Source of the DNA: Thermoplasmata archaeon | Lineage (GTDB): Archaea; Thermoplasmatota; Thermoplasmata; UBA10834 | Assembly: GCA_041554135.1 (NCBI GenBank) | Contig: JBFFML010000002.1 | Location: 22,212-86,211, forward strand | Length of the DNA stretch: 64,000 nucleotides | Direction of reading: 5' to 3' | Part shown: positions 1,926-40,495 of the stretch, piece after piece | Layout of the letters: every line of letters starts with the position of its first letter | Position numbering within the stretch: the stretch's first letter is position 1 | Program-made: the position numbers and the translations under genes | The notes under the pieces: model-generated | The model's database searches: none | The model's input: the letters and a program-made list of their open reading frames with translations, nothing else | What the model was told of the DNA's origin: nothing

Positions 1926-3383
1926 TTGGCCAAAGCCGTTTTTTCCCCGTTGACGAGCGAGCAGGAAGACCAGGTGCACGAGTCATCGATCCGTATACTC
2001 GAAGAGATAGGAATCAAGGTCACGAGCAAGACGGTCATGGCCATGCTCAAAGAGCATGGAGCGACGGTCGACGACAAGGGCCAGATCGCGAAGTTGCCCG
2101 AAAGCCTGGTGGAGGAGTCCCTGTCGAAAGCGCCGAAGGAGTTGATGATGTGCGCCAGGGACAAGAGGTACGATCTTAGCCTTCCAGCATCGAAGCCGCA
2201 GGCGGTGAACGACGGTCAGCCCCCTTACATGTGGGACATGGACGGGCAGAGAAAGCGAAGCTCGACGATGCGCGACCTGATCGACCTCACGATCGTTTGC
2301 GACGCCATGCCTGAAGTGGATCTCTACTGGCCAGAGGTGATCGCTACGGACATCCCTCCCGATGTGTCGAGCTGCCACGAGTACGTGGCCGCGATGTTCC
2401 ACACCGGCAAGCATGTCCAGCACGGAGCAGGCAGTGTCACGGAGGCCAAGCTGGAGATCGATGTCGCTGCAGCCATCGTCGGGTCGGAGAAGGAGCTGGC
2501 CCGTAGACCAGTCATATCCATAACGCACACACCGATGACCCCGCTCAGATACGAGGCGGGCGATGTCGACGCTGTCGTGGAGTTCGCAAGGGCCGGTCTG
2601 CCCGTCGTGCACCTGTCGATGGCGATATCCGGTTCCGTCTCGCCTGTATCCCTCGCCGGGACGGTCACGCTCGTTAACGCGGAGAACCTCGCGGGAGCCG
2701 TCATATCCGAGATCTCCGCGCCAGGAGCTCCGATACTCTACAGTTCCGAATCGGGTCCGATGGACATGAGGACCGGCGTGTTCCTCTCGGGCTCGACGGA
2801 AGGATCCCTGATAAACGCCGCTGGATGCCAGATGGCCAGGAGGTACGGCCTGCCGTCCCAGGTCGGCGGCATCGCGGCGTCCGGGTGCGTCCCGGGGTTC
2901 GAGGTCGGCTATCAGAAGGCCATAAGCGCGTTGGTCCCCGCGATGGCGGGCGCCGACCAGATCGTGGGGATAGGCGGCATTGAGCGCTCGGGGTGCGAGT
3001 CCCTGGAACAGGTAGTGATGGACTGCGAGCTGTGGCGGAACGTGCTGAGAGCCTGGCGCGGTATAGATGTGAACGAGGCCACGATGGCCTATGACGCGAT
3101 CGCGCGCGTGGGCCCCGGCGGGTACTTCATGAAGGATCCTCACACGATCAAGCACTTCAGGAGCGAGAACCTCTTCCCTAAGATCGCCATGCTACCCGCA
3201 GAGCCTGGTAGGAAGGAGGAGCCGATGCACTTGGCTGCTGTGAGGGAGGCGAAGAGGCTGCTCAAGGAGCACAGGTGCCTTGAGCTTGAGGGCGACGTCA
3301 AGAAGGAGATCAAGGCGCTGCTCGCCAAGTACGACGAGGGCGTCCTGGGGCGAAGCGTCGCCGTCGACTACTTGGACAGGTGA
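1926..3383 (+). CDS. Trimethylamine methyltransferase (MttB) superfamily protein, non-pyrrolysine type
   Basis: VHESSIRILEEIGI, SPVSLAGT..L.NAE.LAG, MDMRTG, VGPGG.F motifs; no in-frame amber codon. Confidence 0.85.
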   Translation: MAKAVFSPLTSEQEDQVHESSIRILEEIGIKVTSKTVMAMLKEHGATVDDKGQIAKLPESLVEESLSKAPKELMMCARDKRYDLSLPASKPQAVNDGQPPYMWDMDGQRKRSSTMRDLIDLTIVCDAMPEVDLYWPEVIATDIPPDVSSCHEYVAAMFHTGKHVQHGAGSVTEAKLEIDVAAAIVGSEKELARRPVISITHTPMTPLRYEAGDVDAVVEFARAGLPVVHLSMAISGSVSPVSLAGTVTLVNAENLAGAVISEISAPGAPILYSSESGPMDMRTGVFLSGSTEGSLINAAGCQMARRYGLPSQVGGIAASGCVPGFEVGYQKAISALVPAMAGADQIVGIGGIERSGCESLEQVVMDCELWRNVLRAWRGIDVNEATMAYDAIARVGPGGYFMKDPHTIKHFRSENLFPKIAMLPAEPGRKEEPMHLAAVREAKRLLKEHRCLELEGDVKKEIKALLAKYDEGVLGRSVAVDYLDR

Positions 3384-3426
3384 CTCCCCCTCAACTTTTA
3401 AGGGCCATATACGTCTTGTACCTTGC

Positions 3427-4560
3427 ATGTCGGAATCCATCGGCTTTCTGAACGGCGGAGGCTATCAGCGTTCGCTTGTGAAGGCTGCGGACGCCGCTGT
3501 CAAGGAAGTCCTCGCGGTAAGGCGTGACGAGCGCGTGTTGATCATATCGAACTCGAACAAGGGGACGCGCGATATCGCGATGGCATTGTTCGACGCGTCA
3601 TTACGAGCCCGTGCCTCTCCTGTGCTGGCCTTCCAGAAGGAGAAGGGCCAGTTCGATTTCACAGAGGAAGAGGTGATAAAGGCGCTCTCCGCGGAACCCG
3701 ATGTGGTGCTGTCCATTAGCAAGGACAGGCTTGGGATGGACCGGCACGGCCTGAAGCACGGCTATTCTGGCAAGCGCCGCTACGACAGCCTGTTCGATAT
3801 GTTGTGCAACGAGGACAAAGCGAGGGCTTTCTGGTCGCCGGGCATAACCCCCGACATGTTCGCCAGGACCGTGCCGATAGATTATTCCGTCCTTAGGCGG
3901 GATTGTCGCAAGCTCGTACGCTCGATGATGACGGCCGAGGCGATAAGAGTGACAGCGCCTTCGGGCACCGACGTCACGGTCGGCGTGAAGGGACGTGCGC
4001 CCAAATCGGATGACGGCGATTTCAGGAGACCAGGCGGCGCGGGCAACATCCCCTCGGGTGAGGTCTACGTGTCCCCCGCCCTTGGCTCGACCAATGGCAG
4101 GATCGCGTTCGACGGCTCGATCGCCCTGAACGATGGCGAGGTCGTGATCAAGGAACCCATTGTCGCAACGGTTGAGGGCGGTTTCGTGAAGAGGATATCC
4201 GGGGGCGTTGAAGCCGAGATGTTGAGGAAGTCGGTCCGATACGGCCAACAGAACGCCAGACGGATGGCCTCCAAGGGGGAGCTGAAGCCGTCTGAGGCGG
4301 AGGGTTACTACAGGAACGCGCGCTCAATCGGCGAACTCGGTGTGGGGCTCAACAGGAAGGCCAGGATAGTCGCGAACATGCTCGAGGATGAGAAGGTCTA
4401 CGGCACGTGCCATTTCGCCGTCGGGAGCAACTACGACGGCGACGCCGATTCCCTGATACACCTTGACGGACTCGTGAAATCTCCGACCATATCATTGATT
4501 GGCCGGAACGGGAAAGACGAGGGGGATGTCATGGTCAGGGGCAAGCTAGTCTGGGACTAG
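3427..4560 (+). CDS. M29-family (thermophilic metalloprotease-like) aminopeptidase
   Basis: GNIPSGEVY, IGELGVGLN, EDEKVYGTCHFAVGSN and HLDG motifs; start set at ATG 3427 downstream of TTTTAAG. Confidence 0.85.
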   Translation: MSESIGFLNGGGYQRSLVKAADAAVKEVLAVRRDERVLIISNSNKGTRDIAMALFDASLRARASPVLAFQKEKGQFDFTEEEVIKALSAEPDVVLSISKDRLGMDRHGLKHGYSGKRRYDSLFDMLCNEDKARAFWSPGITPDMFARTVPIDYSVLRRDCRKLVRSMMTAEAIRVTAPSGTDVTVGVKGRAPKSDDGDFRRPGGAGNIPSGEVYVSPALGSTNGRIAFDGSIALNDGEVVIKEPIVATVEGGFVKRISGGVEAEMLRKSVRYGQQNARRMASKGELKPSEAEGYYRNARSIGELGVGLNRKARIVANMLEDEKVYGTCHFAVGSNYDGDADSLIHLDGLVKSPTISLIGRNGKDEGDVMVRGKLVWD

Positions 4561-4566
4561 GTCACG

Positions 4567-4574
4567 TTTTTATG
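4567..4574 (+). promoter_or_regulatory. Putative TATA box for the E1 gene
   Basis: TTTTTATG about 25 nt upstream of ATG 4598, the spacing expected for a leaderless archaeal transcript. Confidence 0.45.
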
Positions 4575-4597
4575 CCACCTGCCCCGTCTCCTTTTCG

Positions 4598-5413
4598 ATG
4601 GGGGAAGTGATCAAGCCCGGGGACGTGGACGGCGATAGGTTCGACAGGTCTCGCCGCATCGAGTGGCTGGACATGGACTGCATCGGCGAGGCAAGGGTCC
4701 TCGTGATAGGCGCGGGAGCTCTTGGGAACGAGGTGGGGAAGGATCTCGTCCTCTCAGGGTTCCGAGACATCACGATTGTGGACATGGATCACGTCGTCGG
4801 GTCCAACCTCAGTAGGTGTGTGTTCTTCAGCTCGGCGGATGTCGCGACGAGATCGTGCAAGGCCCAGATATTGGCCGAAGGCATGAACCGTCTCCGCGAG
4901 GACGTGAGCGCGAGATGGGTGGCCGATCGTGTGGAGGAGATCCCCGTGGAGGAGTTCAGCAAGGCGGACATCGTCCTTGGCTGCCTCGACAACATCGCAG
5001 CAAGATCGTACGTCAACGCCGCGTCATACGCCGCTGGCACACTGTACGTGGACGGCGGTATGGATGGCCTGATCGGCAAGGTCATGGTGGTCAGGCCGCC
5101 GGACGGTGCATGCCTAGCATGCGGTATGAACAGGTCACATGCCAAGGTGGCGAACCTGAGGTTCAGCTGCACAGGGTCCGATGTGACGTTCCATGAGCCG
5201 AGGGTCCCTGCGGAGATAACGACGACGAGCGTAATAGGCGCGGTGATGGTTCGGGAGGCGATCAAGCACGCATCGGGCAAGGACGACCTCCTGCTTTCGA
5301 ATGTGTTCTACTATGATGGCAAGATCAACCGCTCAGAAGAGCTGGAGGTGGAGCGCGACCCGCTCTGCGCGGTCCACGCCGAACGGCCAGCTACAGGTAT
5401 TCGAAACCCTTAA
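4598..5413 (+). CDS. E1 ubiquitin-like activating enzyme (ThiF/MoeB fold)
   Basis: GAGALG nucleotide loop, DMD.V..SNL.R, CLDN..AR..VN, Zn site C172/C175 + C257/H260, candidate catalytic C191 in FSCT. Confidence 0.92.
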   Translation: MGEVIKPGDVDGDRFDRSRRIEWLDMDCIGEARVLVIGAGALGNEVGKDLVLSGFRDITIVDMDHVVGSNLSRCVFFSSADVATRSCKAQILAEGMNRLREDVSARWVADRVEEIPVEEFSKADIVLGCLDNIAARSYVNAASYAAGTLYVDGGMDGLIGKVMVVRPPDGACLACGMNRSHAKVANLRFSCTGSDVTFHEPRVPAEITTTSVIGAVMVREAIKHASGKDDLLLSNVFYYDGKINRSEELEVERDPLCAVHAERPATGIRNP

Positions 5414-5415
5414 GG
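5402..5415 (+). promoter_or_regulatory. Putative internal BRE/TATA promoter for Ubl-E2-JAMM
   Basis: CGAAA-CCCTTAAGG about 30 nt upstream of the Ubl start; similar AAA..TTA(A/T) elements precede several other genes in the window. Confidence 0.35.
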
Positions 5416-5446
5416 TCTCTGTGACGGTGTCGCACTGGGTGGTTCG

Positions 5447-5686
5447 TTGCCCTTCCGCATCAAAGTGAAGAACGCCGAGACAGGCGCATCCGTGGAGATG
5501 GAACTCGAGAACGACAACACCGTGGATGAGGTGATAGAGAGTGCTGCCGCCTTCTGGAAGAAGGACATGGGGGCGTATGTCGTCCGGAAGGGGAAGAAGG
5601 TCTTGAGGGGAAGCACTTCGCTCACCGACGCCGGCATCCGAGAAGACGATGTTCTTGAGCTCGTGCCAGATCCCGAAGGCGGATAG
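5447..5686 (+). CDS. Ubiquitin-like (beta-grasp) modifier with C-terminal GG
   Basis: 79 aa, TTG start after GGGTGG; aligns by eye to ubiquitin (I.VK..TG, T(V/I), L.D..I, L.LV....GG); ends PDPEGG-stop. Confidence 0.88.
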   Translation: MPFRIKVKNAETGASVEMELENDNTVDEVIESAAAFWKKDMGAYVVRKGKKVLRGSTSLTDAGIREDDVLELVPDPEGG

Positions 5687-5691
5687 AGGCC

Positions 5692-6222
5692 ATGTCCTTT
5701 CCGCCGCTACCTATCGACATATTGAGGATACGTCTGAGAAACGAGATAGAGGCCTGTCAGCGTGAGCTGAGACACCACATATCGGTTTCCGACACTTCGC
5801 TGAGCGCCTTTCCGATACTGGTAAACATCACACTGATGCGTGTCCCCGGCCCTTCGCTGGTCAACGGCAGAGTGGTTCACAGGTTCGTCCATCGAATGAT
5901 CCTCTTGATCACCGAACAGTATCCTGTGGAGAAACCGATCGTCAAGTGGAGGACGCCGATATTCCACCCAAACATCATGCCGCCAGAGGACGGGGGATAC
6001 GTCTGCACCAAACTCCTTGAGAACTGGGACTTCAACTCCACATTGCTCACTTTCATCAAGGGGATAGAGTGGCTTCTCGCCAACCCGAACGCCGGCAATC
6101 CGTTCGGCAGCGACACGTGTACGCGTGCAGCGGCGCACTTCAACCGATATGGATATGACCCTCCGGACAGCCCCGGCGCGAACGGTCGACGCATCAGGAT
6201 AATAGGTGAGGCGGATGGTTAA
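5692..6222 (+). CDS. E2 ubiquitin-conjugating enzyme (UBC fold)
   Basis: YP..KP.V.W.TPIFHPNI...G.VC..LL..W and LL.NPN..NP motifs; HPN 92-94, catalytic C105. Confidence 0.93.
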   Translation: MSFPPLPIDILRIRLRNEIEACQRELRHHISVSDTSLSAFPILVNITLMRVPGPSLVNGRVVHRFVHRMILLITEQYPVEKPIVKWRTPIFHPNIMPPEDGGYVCTKLLENWDFNSTLLTFIKGIEWLLANPNAGNPFGSDTCTRAAAHFNRYGYDPPDSPGANGRRIRIIGEADG

Positions 6223-6856
6223 GCCGAGGATCGTCGGAGAAGTCCGAAGGGACCCGTTCAGAAGGCCTCCGCCGCACGATATACGCCCTCATCCGTGGTT
6301 CGCGAGTGACACGACGACACTCTATGATGAGGCGTTGGCTGAGGGTTCCGGACTTGAGATATTCATGTCTTCGACAGCGGAGGGCAAGATCCGGCGACAG
6401 TCACTCGACGCCGCGCCTGGGAGGCTCGAGGTCATGGGCCTGCTGCTTGGCGACGTCTGTTCATGGAACGGTAATGAGTATTCGATCATCCGGGATGTGG
6501 GAACCACCGCTCTCAAGAACTCGCCGGCGAAGGTGAAGTTCGACCCCGAAGCGTTGCCAGGCCTCTTCTCCAGCCTCGACGGCGTGGGTTTCGACTATGT
6601 CGTAGTAGGTTGGTATCATTCACATCCCGGTCACACTTGTTTCATGTCGGGAACCGATCTGCGCACACAGAGATCCATGTTCGATCAGCCCTTCCATTGC
6701 GCGGTCGTAATGGACCCTGTCGGGAGGGAAGTGAGGGCCTTCAAGACGAGGGATGGCGTATGCGTCGAAGTCCCGTTCGCGCTGACATCGCCCGGAGGAC
6801 TCAGGGTCAGGAGGCTCAAGTCGGCCGACTCTCTCGGCGTCTCCGGCGGCATATGA
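6215..6856 (+). CDS. JAMM/MPN+ metallo-isopeptidase (Rpn11/CSN5-like)
   Basis: EVMGLLLG, VVGWYHSHPG..CFMS.TD..TQ and AVVMDP motifs; ATG 6215 follows GGTGAG and overlaps the E2 stop. Confidence 0.93.
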   Translation: MVKPRIVGEVRRDPFRRPPPHDIRPHPWFASDTTTLYDEALAEGSGLEIFMSSTAEGKIRRQSLDAAPGRLEVMGLLLGDVCSWNGNEYSIIRDVGTTALKNSPAKVKFDPEALPGLFSSLDGVGFDYVVVGWYHSHPGHTCFMSGTDLRTQRSMFDQPFHCAVVMDPVGREVRAFKTRDGVCVEVPFALTSPGGLRVRRLKSADSLGVSGGI

Positions 6857-6904
6857 TGACTGAGCGCCGTGGTCCCAGAAAGCTTATTCCGTGGCCAGCT
6901 CCTT

Positions 6905-8068
6905 ATGGAATGTCAGAGGGATAGCTTGGAAACGGTCGCCTCGAAGAGTGTCTTCGTGGCAGCGGTCTGCCTGTCGTTGGTCATCGCCTGCCTGCCGGTA
7001 TTTGTGGAGGCGGACTCCGAAGACTACATGCTTTTCGTCAGTGTCGACGACAAGAAGGTGACCATCCTCTCAGGCAACTTCAGCGTCAGGGTCACGACGG
7101 AGTGGCCCAGGGTGATTTTCTGGCACGAGGTCGACCCTTTCAGCCCGTCCTTCGAGGTGAGTTATCCGCGCATGTATATGCACAACGACTCCGATCGTGA
7201 CGGCGTATTCGATAGCGGCGAGGCTGGTCTGACCGTGTTCCTCGACTCCAACCATGTGGAGTGGAACCTGACCAACATCGTTCAGGGGTTCAGCGAGGAG
7301 TGTGGGGAGTATGCCTACTTCGGCATGAGGTCCTCCCTAAACGCCTACTTTGTGGGTGAGAACGAGACCCTCGTAGAGTCCGACTGGGCGAACATGACTT
7401 TCTGGTTCTTCATCGCGGAGCTCCCGATTGAGTATCAAAACTCCATGGGCGGCTATGTCGTCGCGGGGATGACGCAGCTTCGCATGAATTTCACGTTATC
7501 CATCAACAAGAATCTGACAATGGACAATCTTGTCCTTGAGCAGTTCCTGCAGGGCGGGGCATCCACCAGTGTATTCCATCTGTATGAGTCTACGGCCGAG
7601 GGTGACACGGAAGTGAATAAAATCACGTCGACCGTGGACGAACGGCTGCTTGAGGACAACTGCAGCCATATGTTCAATGGCACGGCGAGCCCCATGCAGA
7701 AGGTGCAATTCGCCAAGGAGGACGGGGTGGTCCAGGCGTTCTACCTGTGGAGCTCCGACGCTCTATTGGGAACCTGCGAGAACTACTCGGCGTATCTCGT
7801 CAACTCCTCCTATTTCACGACCGGCAACGGCATGATGCTACACTCCCTCCTGCCAGTCGGCAACGGCACGACGGAGGTCTCCCACGTCTGCAGCACTGGA
7901 ATATATGAGTCCGGGTTCGTCGGCGGCGTCAAGGATTGGCTCAGGGAGGAGTCAGTCATCGCATCCATCATGCTCGCAACGGCCGTCGCCATCTTTGTGG
8001 CGTTATGGGTCTGGCGGAGGAGGCTGCGGAAGTCACAGCCTGAGGATTCCAAAGCGGACGAAGAATGA
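6905..8068 (+). CDS. Hypothetical membrane-anchored surface glycoprotein
   Basis: N-terminal hydrophobic signal, 12 N-x-S/T sequons, DSDRDGVFDSGE Ca-binding-like motif, C-terminal TM + RRRLRK. Confidence 0.7.
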   Translation: MECQRDSLETVASKSVFVAAVCLSLVIACLPVFVEADSEDYMLFVSVDDKKVTILSGNFSVRVTTEWPRVIFWHEVDPFSPSFEVSYPRMYMHNDSDRDGVFDSGEAGLTVFLDSNHVEWNLTNIVQGFSEECGEYAYFGMRSSLNAYFVGENETLVESDWANMTFWFFIAELPIEYQNSMGGYVVAGMTQLRMNFTLSINKNLTMDNLVLEQFLQGGASTSVFHLYESTAEGDTEVNKITSTVDERLLEDNCSHMFNGTASPMQKVQFAKEDGVVQAFYLWSSDALLGTCENYSAYLVNSSYFTTGNGMMLHSLLPVGNGTTEVSHVCSTGIYESGFVGGVKDWLREESVIASIMLATAVAIFVALWVWRRRLRKSQPEDSKADEE

Positions 8069-8071
8069 GTG

Positions 8072-8608
8072 TCAGACCCATATGGCGTGGCGTTTGCGCA
8101 TCGATCCCTCAGTCTGCCCAAGTTTGTCCATTAGCTGAGCGATTATGCCATCGAGGTAGATTAGCGTGGCGTCCTCGAAGAGCGTTCCGAGAGGGGCCAA
8201 GATCCCACGTTTCTCATCCTTGCCAGGCTTGATGTGGATGACAAGGTTCGACGCGTTCGCGAGCTTCGAGTGGACGTTCGCCGTCACGCTGACTACACGG
8301 GCGCCGACCCTTCGCACGATGTTCGCCGTCTGTATGCACGACATCGTGTTTCCTGTCTGCGAGACAATGATCACGAGATGTCCCTCCTCCACTATGGGCG
8401 TGATCGTCTCTCCGACGAAGTAGACTTCGAGTCCCATCTGGACGAGCCTGATGGCGAAAGCCTTGGCAATCAGGCCGGAGCGGCCGACGCCGTATATGAA
8501 TATCCTAGGAGACTTTATCAACATCTCCACGAACTGGTCGGTGCCCTCCACGTCGCCTTGCAGAGTCTCTCGTATGTTGTCTATTATGTAGTTCGTGCTT
8601 CGCCTCAT
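8072..8608 (-). CDS. hxlB: 6-phospho-3-hexuloisomerase (SIS domain)
   Basis: IFIYGVGRSGL, VGETITP and APLGTLFE motifs. Confidence 0.85.
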   Translation of the reverse strand: MRRSTNYIIDNIRETLQGDVEGTDQFVEMLIKSPRIFIYGVGRSGLIAKAFAIRLVQMGLEVYFVGETITPIVEEGHLVIIVSQTGNTMSCIQTANIVRRVGARVVSVTANVHSKLANASNLVIHIKPGKDEKRGILAPLGTLFEDATLIYLDGIIAQLMDKLGQTEGSMRKRHAIWV

Positions 8609-39286: not shown

Positions 39287-40495
39287 TTGGAATCTGAGCA
39301 ATCCTCGGAGCTTTATGAGGAGATTCAAAGAAGGCTGTCTGTCCTTGAAGAGCGCAACCTTGAGCTCGTGGAAGAGGCAAGACGGGTCGAGGGCGAGAAG
39401 AGGTTCATAGAGGGAGAGTTGATCCGCCTGCAGAAGGAGCTGAAGAGGCTCAAGGCGGAGCTAGAGCGATTGAAGGCTCCTCCCCTGATAATAGGTCAGA
39501 TCAAGGATGTGCTCGCGGACGGGCGCGTGGTGGTCAAGAGTTCCACGGGCCCTGACTTCGTTGTCAGCACCTCGGATTACGTGTCTCCGGAGTTGCTCGA
39601 GGCGGGCGCCCGCGTGGCTCTGAACAAGCAGACACTCGCGGTGATGGGCGTTTTGCCGCCCTCTCTCGATCCGATCGTGGTCGGCGCCGAGATAATCGAG
39701 AAGCCCGAGACGTCCTATGACGATATAGGCGGCCTTCAGGAACAGATCGTCGAGATACGGGAGGCGGTGGAGGACCCGCTGCTCAGGCCCGAGCTCTACA
39801 AGCGTGTTGGGATAGACCCCCCTAAGGGAGTCCTCCTGGTCGGACCACCCGGGACGGGCAAGACGCTGCTCGCCAAGGCGGTGGCCCAGCAGACGAACGC
39901 CACCTTCATCAGGTTCGTGGGGTCCGAATTGGTCCAGAAGTACATCGGCGAAGGGGCAAGGCTCGTCAGGGAGCTCTTCGACCTCGCTCGTCAGAAGGCC
40001 CCGTCCATCGTCTTCATAGACGAGCTCGACAGCGTGGGCGCGAAGAGGTTGGAGCTCGCGACATCGGGCGACAGAGAGGTCCAGCGCACACTCATGCAGA
40101 TCCTAGCCGAGCTCGACGGCTTCAACCCGCTCGGCGACGTGAAGATCGTCGGCGCGACGAACAGGCCGGACATACTGGACGAGGCGCTCCTGAGGCCAGG
40201 AAGGTTCGACAGGATCATCGAGATACCGATACCCAGCTTCGACGCGAGAGTCGACATATTCGGCATACACACGAAGCGTATGAACCTCGACGAGTCGGTC
40301 AACATCGATGAGCTCGCGGGCAAGTCCGACTCGGCCACGGGCGCTGACATCAAGGCGATATGCACCGAGGCTGGCATGTTCGCAATTCGCGAGAACCGAG
40401 ATGTCGTGACCATGACCGATCTCGAGAGGGCCATATCTAAGGTGCTCGACGACGGTGACCAGCGGGCTATGGAATCCGGGCCGATGTTCGCCTGA
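39287..40495 (+). CDS. pan: Proteasome-activating nucleotidase
   Basis: Coiled coil, OB domain (VKSSTGP), Walker [25 protein letters not shown]-terminal MFA. Confidence 0.96.

Follow-up and report, generated by a model that had tools for sequence, protein, structure and literature searches.

We analyzed a gene for a ubiquitin-type modifier, referred to here as Ubl (ubiquitin-like protein), in the DNA of an uncultured Thermoplasmata archaeon (assembly GCA_041554135.1, contig JBFFML010000002.1, positions 22,212-86,211 of the forward strand). All coordinates are those of this 64,000-nucleotide stretch, called the window. The Ubl gene (5447..5686, + strand) encodes 79 amino acids that end in PDPEGG; as read from the gene, the protein is made in its mature form, with the Gly-Gly directly before the stop codon. 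Its start codon is TTG, the first start codon past the in-frame TAA (5411-5413) that closes the preceding gene, and a Shine-Dalgarno-like motif, GGGTGG (5437-5442, + strand), lies 4 nucleotides before it. GGTGG was found at the equivalent place in those related loci whose sequences were inspected there.

Ubl is the second of four tightly packed genes on the same strand. The first (4598..5413, + strand) encodes an E1-like activating enzyme of 271 amino acids with a single ThiF/MoeB-type adenylation domain. The match to Pfam ThiF (145.3 bits) covered residues 26-258 of the 271, leaving no space for another domain, and the best solved relatives were SAE2/UBA2 (8.4e-19), followed by ThiF, MoeB, and UBA3. 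Downstream of Ubl lies the gene for a UBC-fold E2 (5692..6222, + strand; 176 amino acids) with an HPN motif (FHPNIM) and Cys105, which scored 45.2 bits with Pfam UQ_con (cut-off 27) and had eukaryotic E2s as its best solved relatives (7.7e-11). The fourth gene (6206..6856, + strand), whose first 17 nucleotides coincide with the last ones of the E2 gene, encodes an Rpn11/CSN5-like JAB/MPN+ metalloprotease of 216 amino acids with the JAMM motif HSHPGH..S..D. In Pfam it scored 37.1 bits with JAB and 25.2 bits with Prok-JAB; the Pfam matches of E1, E2, and JAB all exceeded the respective cut-offs. The best solved relatives of the metalloprotease were Rpn11 (7.4e-13) and CSN5, and the Rpn11-like protein of Caldiarchaeum also matched it (3.9e-9). 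The motifs of all three enzymes were kept in at least 95% of their orthologues: G.GA.GNE, DMD, GCLDN, C172-x2-C175, C257-x2-H260, and R.SC191TG in E1 (65 orthologues), I-FHPNIM, DGG..C105, and PN...P in E2 (75 orthologues), and E75 and VGWYHSHP...CF.S..D in JAB (71 orthologues).

Ubl was found to have a ubiquitin-type beta-grasp fold. Pfam ubiquitin (PF00240) matched it with 21.2 bits (E 2.5e-4; 18 bits in the scan of its own genome), and the same Pfam scan gave no ThiS/MoaD match at E<=1. In the Foldseek comparison, a check proposed beforehand, the top match among the best 50 listed was Caldiarchaeum ubiquitin (6fnn_C; 1.1e-7, TM 0.85, 23% identity), and SUMO and ubiquitin came next. ThiS/MoaD proteins and ubiquitin were compared directly by family profile and hhalign. 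The family profile, built from 211 distinct full-length sequences in a sample that leans to close relatives, scored 21.1-22.8 bits against ubiquitin (hhalign probability 92%) and 1.3-3.7 bits (hhalign 2.7-12.7%) against the three ThiS/MoaD-type proteins of the same genome. The genes for these three proteins end in SGG, and a second ThiF gene elsewhere in the genome fits the ThiF family better than the operon E1 does (249 bits), so that the genome carries a separate SAMP/MoaD set. The first-pass annotation had assigned the modifier to the ubiquitin-type rather than the SAMP/MoaD-type family; Pfam, Foldseek, and the profile and hhalign comparison all agree with this assignment, and matches to hidden Markov models were not nearer to MoaD/ThiS than to ubiquitin.

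The residue register was examined against the first 76 residues of a stored polyubiquitin (P0177), which correspond to one repeat. At an offset of +3, Ubl has 17 gapless identities with this repeat between T12 and G79, at ubiquitin T9, G10, E16, E18, T22, D24, V26, K48, L50, L56, D58, I61, L67, L69, V70, G75, and G76; with human-type ubiquitin, which has E at position 24, the number is 16. In a chance control, 20,000 shuffled versions of the query, compared in every gapless register, gave at most 16 identities and never 17 (mean best 8.9, standard deviation 1.3). Both hmmsearch with the family profile and hhalign (probability 92.0, E 6.5e-7) aligned A10-G79 with ubiquitin T7-G76 over 70 columns without a gap. 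In the AlphaFold2 model of Ubl (pLDDT 88.0, pTM 0.74), all 73 residues of ubiquitin 2zcb_B were matched to model residues 3..76, a range that permits exactly one insertion of one residue. The first strand is in register at +2 (I5, V7, and K8 correspond to ubiquitin I3, V5, and K6) and later residues at +3, so that the insertion falls ahead of T12, within the first hairpin. At +3, the limits of the strands also agree with those of ubiquitin. A single-sequence phmmer alignment to ubiquitins of the PDB (E about 3e-3) disagreed and put V46 at the I44 position by means of compensating gaps, one of two residues and two of one residue; it was rejected in favour of the gapless register, on which the profile hmmsearch, hhalign, and the ranges of the structural alignment agree. 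Profile, hhalign, structural alignment, and the shuffle control thus bear out the gapless register from T12 that the earlier annotation had drawn by eye, and every residue that it had listed as kept, from G10 to V70 and the Gly-Gly, is present among the identities. These results establish that Ubl is a ubiquitin homologue in both fold and residue register.

The residues that differ include those of ubiquitin's best-known surfaces. E1, E2, E3, deubiquitinases, and binding domains read ubiquitin through its basic tail and its Ile44 patch, and R72 of the tail is the residue of E1 choice. In the gapless profile alignment, ubiquitin L71-R72-L73-R74-G75-G76 corresponds to P74-D75-P76-E77-G78-G79, so that the basic tail L-R-L-R-G-G is not present and P-D-P-E-G-G stands in its place. 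L8 is replaced by E11, R42-L43-I44 by V45-V46-R47, Q49 by V52, and H68 by E71; K48 is retained as K51 and V70 as V73. The acidic PDPEGG tail and the Arg at the I44 position, both put forward in the first-pass annotation, can be read directly from sequence and alignment. The accompanying claim that there is no I44 patch was too strong: of L8, I44, H68, and V70 only V70 is kept (as V73, V or I in the family), and V45 and V52, at ubiquitin R42 and Q49, are aliphatic and fall, by the profile alignment, on the strands that carry the I44 face of ubiquitin. Judged from these positions, the I44 face appears to have been re-made rather than merely lost.

These features are nearly constant across the family. 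Among the 211 distinct sequences, P74 was found in 205, D75 in 207, P76 in 206, E77 in 199, G78 in 208, and G79 in 207. R47 was basic in 207 (R in 194, K in 13), the E11 position acidic in 196 (E in 187, D in 9), and E71 was E in 204. The invariant acidic tail, together with the charged residues R47, E71, and E11 at I44, H68, and L8, implies a different recognition logic, and it is a fair inference from the sequences that the tag is read by surfaces other than the canonical ones. Lysines were kept to differing degrees. K39 was the best kept (204 of 211), followed by K50 (191), K6 (170), K51 (169, with R in a further 20), K8 (163, with R in 44), and K48 (160, with R in 24). A K48-type chain site is therefore possible but would not be universal in the family.

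Relatives were collected in a scan of one genome per species, which gave 150; the locus counts below refer to the best 80 of these. All 80 loci came from Thermoplasmata, Thermoplasmatota, 'Methanobacteriota', Methanomassiliicoccales, or unclassified archaeal or euryarchaeal metagenome-assembled genomes. PDPEGG was present in every one of them; the stop codon directly followed the Gly-Gly in 54, and in the other 26 the frame ran on for 1 to 12 or more residues. E2 and JAB were each detected in 77 loci and E1 in 67. The one-strand order E1, Ubl, E2, JAB was found in 64, and Ubl, E2, and JAB were adjacent in 74. The identity of Ubl across the loci was 58-92%. Ubl was the most conserved of the four genes in all 66 loci holding the complete set, with median identities of 75% for Ubl, 68% for E2, 58% for E1, and 47% for JAB.

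The surroundings of the cassette recurred as well. The same two minus-strand genes followed the operon in many loci, one encoding an SIS-type protein (59/80) and the other a protein of 414 amino acids (53/80). The M29 peptidase gene upstream (3280-4560; Peptidase_M29, 42.5 bits) and the gene for a 399-residue membrane protein downstream (6869-8068) were each present in 38 of the 80 loci, suggesting that both are lineage-specific neighbours. The latter gene lies on the same strand as the operon and starts 13 nucleotides past the JAB gene; its product has a hydrophobic N-terminal stretch, many N-x-S/T sites, a C-terminal membrane anchor, and no Pfam match. Further upstream, an open reading frame at 1926-3383 may encode an MttB-like protein of the trimethylamine methyltransferase family; this frame and the M29-type peptidase gene were conserved in closer relatives only.

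In an even sample of 401 Thermoplasmata genomes, Ubl was found in 135 (79 of the 259 high-quality genomes), nearly always as a single copy. It was present in 42 of the 45 genomes of the window organism's own family, and was not found in several other families of the class (0/59, 0/43, and 0/33 genomes). A word-index search returned 189 clusters, with at least 78% identity among the 120 listed; the few that bore names were annotated as hypothetical and came from Thermoplasmata or Methanobacteriota archaea. When 1.84 billion representatives were searched with a profile, 90 proteins passed E<=1e-3. Among them were eukaryotic polyubiquitins (8e-8 to 8e-4) and divergent members that end in (E/D)L(I/M/V)PDP(E/Q/T)GG.

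The start of the gene varied among the 80 relatives, in which codon 1 of Ubl was ATG in 36, CTG in 26, TTG in 13, and GTG in 3. In at least one locus (L003), a GTG lies within the GGTGG motif, in frame and three codons upstream of codon 1. This GTG, together with database entries beginning MVxL, suggests that the true N-terminus of some relatives may be three residues longer. In the window, the E1 and Ubl genes share a reading frame, and one TAA and 11 codons (5411-5449) lie between them. A fusion of E1 and Ubl in relatives was considered and rejected, as no true fusion was found among eight stretches with long open frames: five were fusions of another kind, two were E1 DNA read out of frame, and in the last, E1 was in frame with Ubl and interrupted by masked letters. 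The five (L089:511-1581 and L090-L093), each from a different genome and together covering two families, encode two zinc ribbons and a DUF835 domain (92.4 bits) in one open frame that has Ubl at its C-terminal end. The original Met still stands immediately ahead of Ubl, and the Gly-Gly is followed by 1-10 residues.

Other architectures were also seen in the family (P0135, P0176, P0131, P0141, P0149, and P0143). They included fusions of Ubl and E2 with an internal Gly-Gly (P0135; UQ_con 47.4 bits) and Ubl-FHA proteins without Gly-Gly (P0131, FHA 33.4 bits; look-alikes P0141 and P0149). One family protein of 1684 amino acids combined an FYVE-like finger, TPR repeats, a Ubl domain, and DUF835. 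In some Methanomassiliicoccales-like loci, found among L057, L060, L076, and L063, the JAB protein encoded after Ubl has a greatly extended N-terminus (243-434 amino acids), and no E2 match was seen between Ubl and JAB. L063 encodes a tandem-JAB protein of 502 amino acids with a hydrophobic C-terminus; L057 and L063 are from one assembly, and that genome therefore carries two Ubl loci.

Together, the sequence data make it very probable that the product of 5447-5686 is the tag of a ubiquitylation cassette of eukaryote-like type, inherited vertically in part of the class Thermoplasmata. Vertical inheritance is indicated because the flanking genes recur and Ubl is nearly always single copy, in almost every genome of its own family. 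Several observations weigh against this interpretation. The Pfam ubiquitin score lies below the gathering cut-off of 25.4, and it is equalled by the score of Pfam YukD (PF08817; 21.5 bits, E 3.9e-4), itself below its cut-off of 27. The E1 has no ubiquitin-fold domain (UFD) for the recruitment of E2. No E3 was found: a C4HC3 RING-like finger lay within 4 kb of Ubl in only one of the 80 loci (L070), in a scan that covered this RING spacing and no other. The exposure of the R47, E71, and E11 side chains is predicted from alignment and strand alternation, and our literature search found no conjugate, thioester, or cleavage reported for any member of the lineage.

The make-up of the cassette invites comparison with the Bil anti-virus systems of bacteria, in which virion proteins would be tagged in defence rather than cellular proteins in housekeeping. 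Both have the same four parts (Ubl, E2, JAB, and E1) and lack an E3; the available portion of PMC10557695 describes Bil operons as sets of E1, E2, Ubl, and JAB deubiquitinase that modify a virion protein, and the E1 of the window matched the generic 'E1-E2' models of PADLOC at up to 5.3e-13. The enzymes themselves are unlike. According to the same portion of PMC10557695, Bil systems have a multidomain E1 and a diverged 'CEHH' E2, whereas the cassette here has a single-domain ThiF E1 of 271 amino acids and an HPN E2 that passes UQ_con. PADLOC gave no match for Ubl or E2 and weak ones for JAB (E >= 0.0058), with a 2023 library that may lack Bil models. The same chromosomal neighbours recur in 59/80 and 53/80 loci, Ubl is single-copy and present in 42/45 genomes of its family, and among the four genes the tag varies least (66/66). 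Synteny, copy number, and conservation of the tag look more like those of a core gene set than those of a mobile defence island, and we consider a defence function improbable.

Two further readings concern the tag protein itself. Ubl could be a sulfur carrier or a SAMP-like protein of dual function that is thiocarboxylated, with tagging secondary or absent; it ends in Gly-Gly, and its E1 is of the minimal ThiF/MoeB type and carries the Cys-x2-Cys zinc site usual in such enzymes. The sequence comparisons point elsewhere, as no ThiS/MoaD match was obtained from Pfam and hhalign gave 2.7-12.7% against the genome's own ThiS-type proteins compared with 92% against ubiquitin. The genome also has a separate, better-scoring ThiF and three ThiS-type genes of its own, and a UBC E2 and an Rpn11-like protease, which would be of no use in sulfur transfer, are adjacent to Ubl in 74/80 loci. 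A sulfur carrier is thus very improbable. It is equally far-fetched, in our estimation, that Ubl is a non-conjugated, YukD-like adaptor that only binds partners and whose Gly-Gly is incidental. The near-identical Pfam scores for YukD and ubiquitin (21.5 and 21.2 bits) and the family members that lack Gly-Gly and are fused to FHA would be in keeping with such an adaptor; the constancy of G78 (208/211) and G79 (207/211), the retention of PDPEGG in 80/80 loci, and the conserved catalytic residues of E1, E2, and JAB encoded next to Ubl all speak against it.

If the cassette acts in ubiquitylation, as we favor, the E1, probably a homodimer like MoeB and ThiF, would adenylate G79 and then form a thioester with the tag, probably at C191, the best candidate. 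The tag would move to C105 of E2 and from there to substrate lysines, either directly or with an E3 encoded elsewhere, and the JAB protease would take it off again. In the relatives whose frames run beyond the Gly-Gly (26/80), JAB would also trim the precursor. E1, E2, and the protease would recognise the tag through reversed charges rather than through a basic tail and a hydrophobic patch.

A possible E3 was searched for in the window and in the whole genome. No open reading frame with a finger was found within 4400-8200 of the window, and zf-RING_2 detected two sub-threshold fingers genome-wide, on contigs C7 (20.6 bits) and C4 (15.6 bits), both C4HC3. The protein on contig C4 (90966-95513) is a helical-repeat protein of 1516 amino acids with CARDB and a C4HC3 finger at its end (Prok-RING_1 27.2 bits, cut-off 29.1). 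A homologue lies directly upstream of Ubl in L070 only (L070:161-3844). This giant protein was found in 236 of the 401 class genomes, compared with 135 for Ubl; it occurred in families that lack Ubl (33/33 and 37/44 genomes), and in one family it was found in 9 of 48 genomes and Ubl in 30. It was rejected as a dedicated E3 partner because its distribution does not track the Ubl system. The protein on contig C7 (14396-15301; 302 amino acids) carries its C4HC3 finger at the N-terminus, with many zinc ribbons behind it; zf_UBZ, a ubiquitin-binding zinc finger, scored 29.8 bits for the whole protein, with no single stretch passing. Transfer directly from E2 and transfer via an unrecognised partner are both possible. 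The window also encodes a PAN-type proteasome-activating ATPase (39380-40456; TIGR01242, 580.6 bits) about 33 kb from the operon, and two Cdc48 homologues lie on other contigs of the genome; no evidence was found that links PAN or the Cdc48 homologues to the tag.

The closest known system, and the same in kind, is the ubiquitylation operon of Caldiarchaeum subterraneum, which is described in the accessible parts of PMC3082918, PMC5654768, and PMC6043591 as encoding the ubiquitin CsUb, E1-like and E2-like proteins, a small RING finger E3, and CsRpn11. In both systems a ubiquitin homologue is encoded together with E1, a UBC E2, and an Rpn11-like JAMM protease. The Caldiarchaeum operon has its own RING E3, whereas none was found here in the operon, nor a C4HC3 finger in 79/80 related loci. 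Further differences can be taken from the portion of PMC5654768 available to us. Its Fig. 1 legend mentions a C-terminal UBL domain identified in E1-like proteins, while the E1 here is a bare adenylation domain of 271 amino acids. The CsRpn11 gene is divergent, whereas the JAB gene here is part of the operon and shares its strand. CsUb is made as a precursor that Rpn11 cleaves, and the tag of the window organism is already mature. The cascade of CsUb requires an exposed hydrophobic patch (T46 corresponds to I44), where Ubl has Arg, and the tail of CsUb leaves 'TVGG' after trypsin, in contrast to PDPEGG.

Eukaryotic ubiquitin and NEDD8 have L8, I44, and H68 where Ubl has E11, R47, and E71, and the tail L-R-L-R-G-G where Ubl has P-D-P-E-G-G. 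In the profile alignment, Ubl is without equivalents of K11, K27, K29, K33, and K63, and the one gene that encodes it is neither a polyubiquitin nor a ribosomal fusion. The likeness to the bacterial, ISG15-like BilABCD operons of types I and II, as far as the part of PMC10557695 at hand covers it, consists of the four-gene set of Ubl, E2, JAB, and E1 without E3, a Ubl structurally nearer to ubiquitin than to ThiS/MoaD, and an E1 without UFD. In the same text, the Bil E1 is composed of an inactive and an active adenylation domain and a Cys domain, compared with the one domain here; Bil Ubls vary in structure and have one conserved Gly followed by up to nine residues, compared with proteins that are 58-92% identical and carry a Gly-Gly end. 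The diverged CEHH E2 likewise contrasts with the canonical HPN-type E2 of the present cassette, and the context of this cassette is syntenic. The SAMP/UbaA and MoaD/ThiS systems share a small beta-grasp protein ending in Gly-Gly, a ThiF/MoeB-type E1, and tag-removing JAMM proteases; they lack the E2 that is present here, where a ThiS-type set is encoded separately in the genome.

Parts of the lineage's system are already in print. An Rpn11 orthologue in the cultured Methanomassiliicoccus luminyensis is given in an excerpt of PMC4453063, and the accessible part of a preprint (bioRxiv 10.1101/2023.07.25.550441) contains a deep-branching Thermoplasmatota clade of E2s. The archaeal groups named in the relevant portion of PMC4327156 are all other ones. 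Three clusters of archaeal operons, which might include this lineage, are the subject of Supplementary Fig. 1 of PMC5654768. Our literature search, whose scope was outside the supplement of PMC5654768, which may bear on the matter, found no description of the modifier, its tail, or its patch. Only the lineage's E2 and Rpn11-like protein were found mentioned in print. Ubl represents a so far uncharacterised form of the eukaryote-like ubiquitin tag of archaea, with its charges reversed.

In this variant, the fold, the Gly-Gly end, and the K48 site are kept, and the tail charge is reversed with Arg at position 44, near constant across a wide archaeal lineage. If the system works as proposed, it would be a natural test of which ubiquitin surfaces E1-E2 chemistry needs, a possible orthogonal tag/E1 pair for protein engineering, and an evolutionary data point outside Asgard and Aigarchaeota. 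The tail would also matter for proteomics. Trypsin would leave a remnant of 14 residues because the last basic residue is R65, whereas Glu-C, predicted to cleave behind E77, should reduce the remnant on modified lysines to Gly-Gly and may make di-Gly proteomics feasible. Relatives in Methanomassiliicoccales and the Rpn11 orthologue reported in the excerpt of PMC4453063 for M. luminyensis suggest that the system may be testable in culture.

More speculatively, a charge-reversed 'ubiquitin code' that works without an E3 may operate in much of Thermoplasmata, its methanogens included. In such a code, the invariant PDPEGG tail and the face formed by R47, E71, and E11 would take the place of the basic tail and the I44 patch in recognition by E1, E2, and the protease. 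We regard this wider proposal as rather unlikely. If it is true, the system would be naturally orthogonal to the ubiquitin of eukaryotes, Asgard, and Aigarchaeota, and chains, if any, would use K39, K50, or K51. It would also mean that the hallmark recognition surfaces of ubiquitin were not yet fixed when E1-E2 tagging arose.

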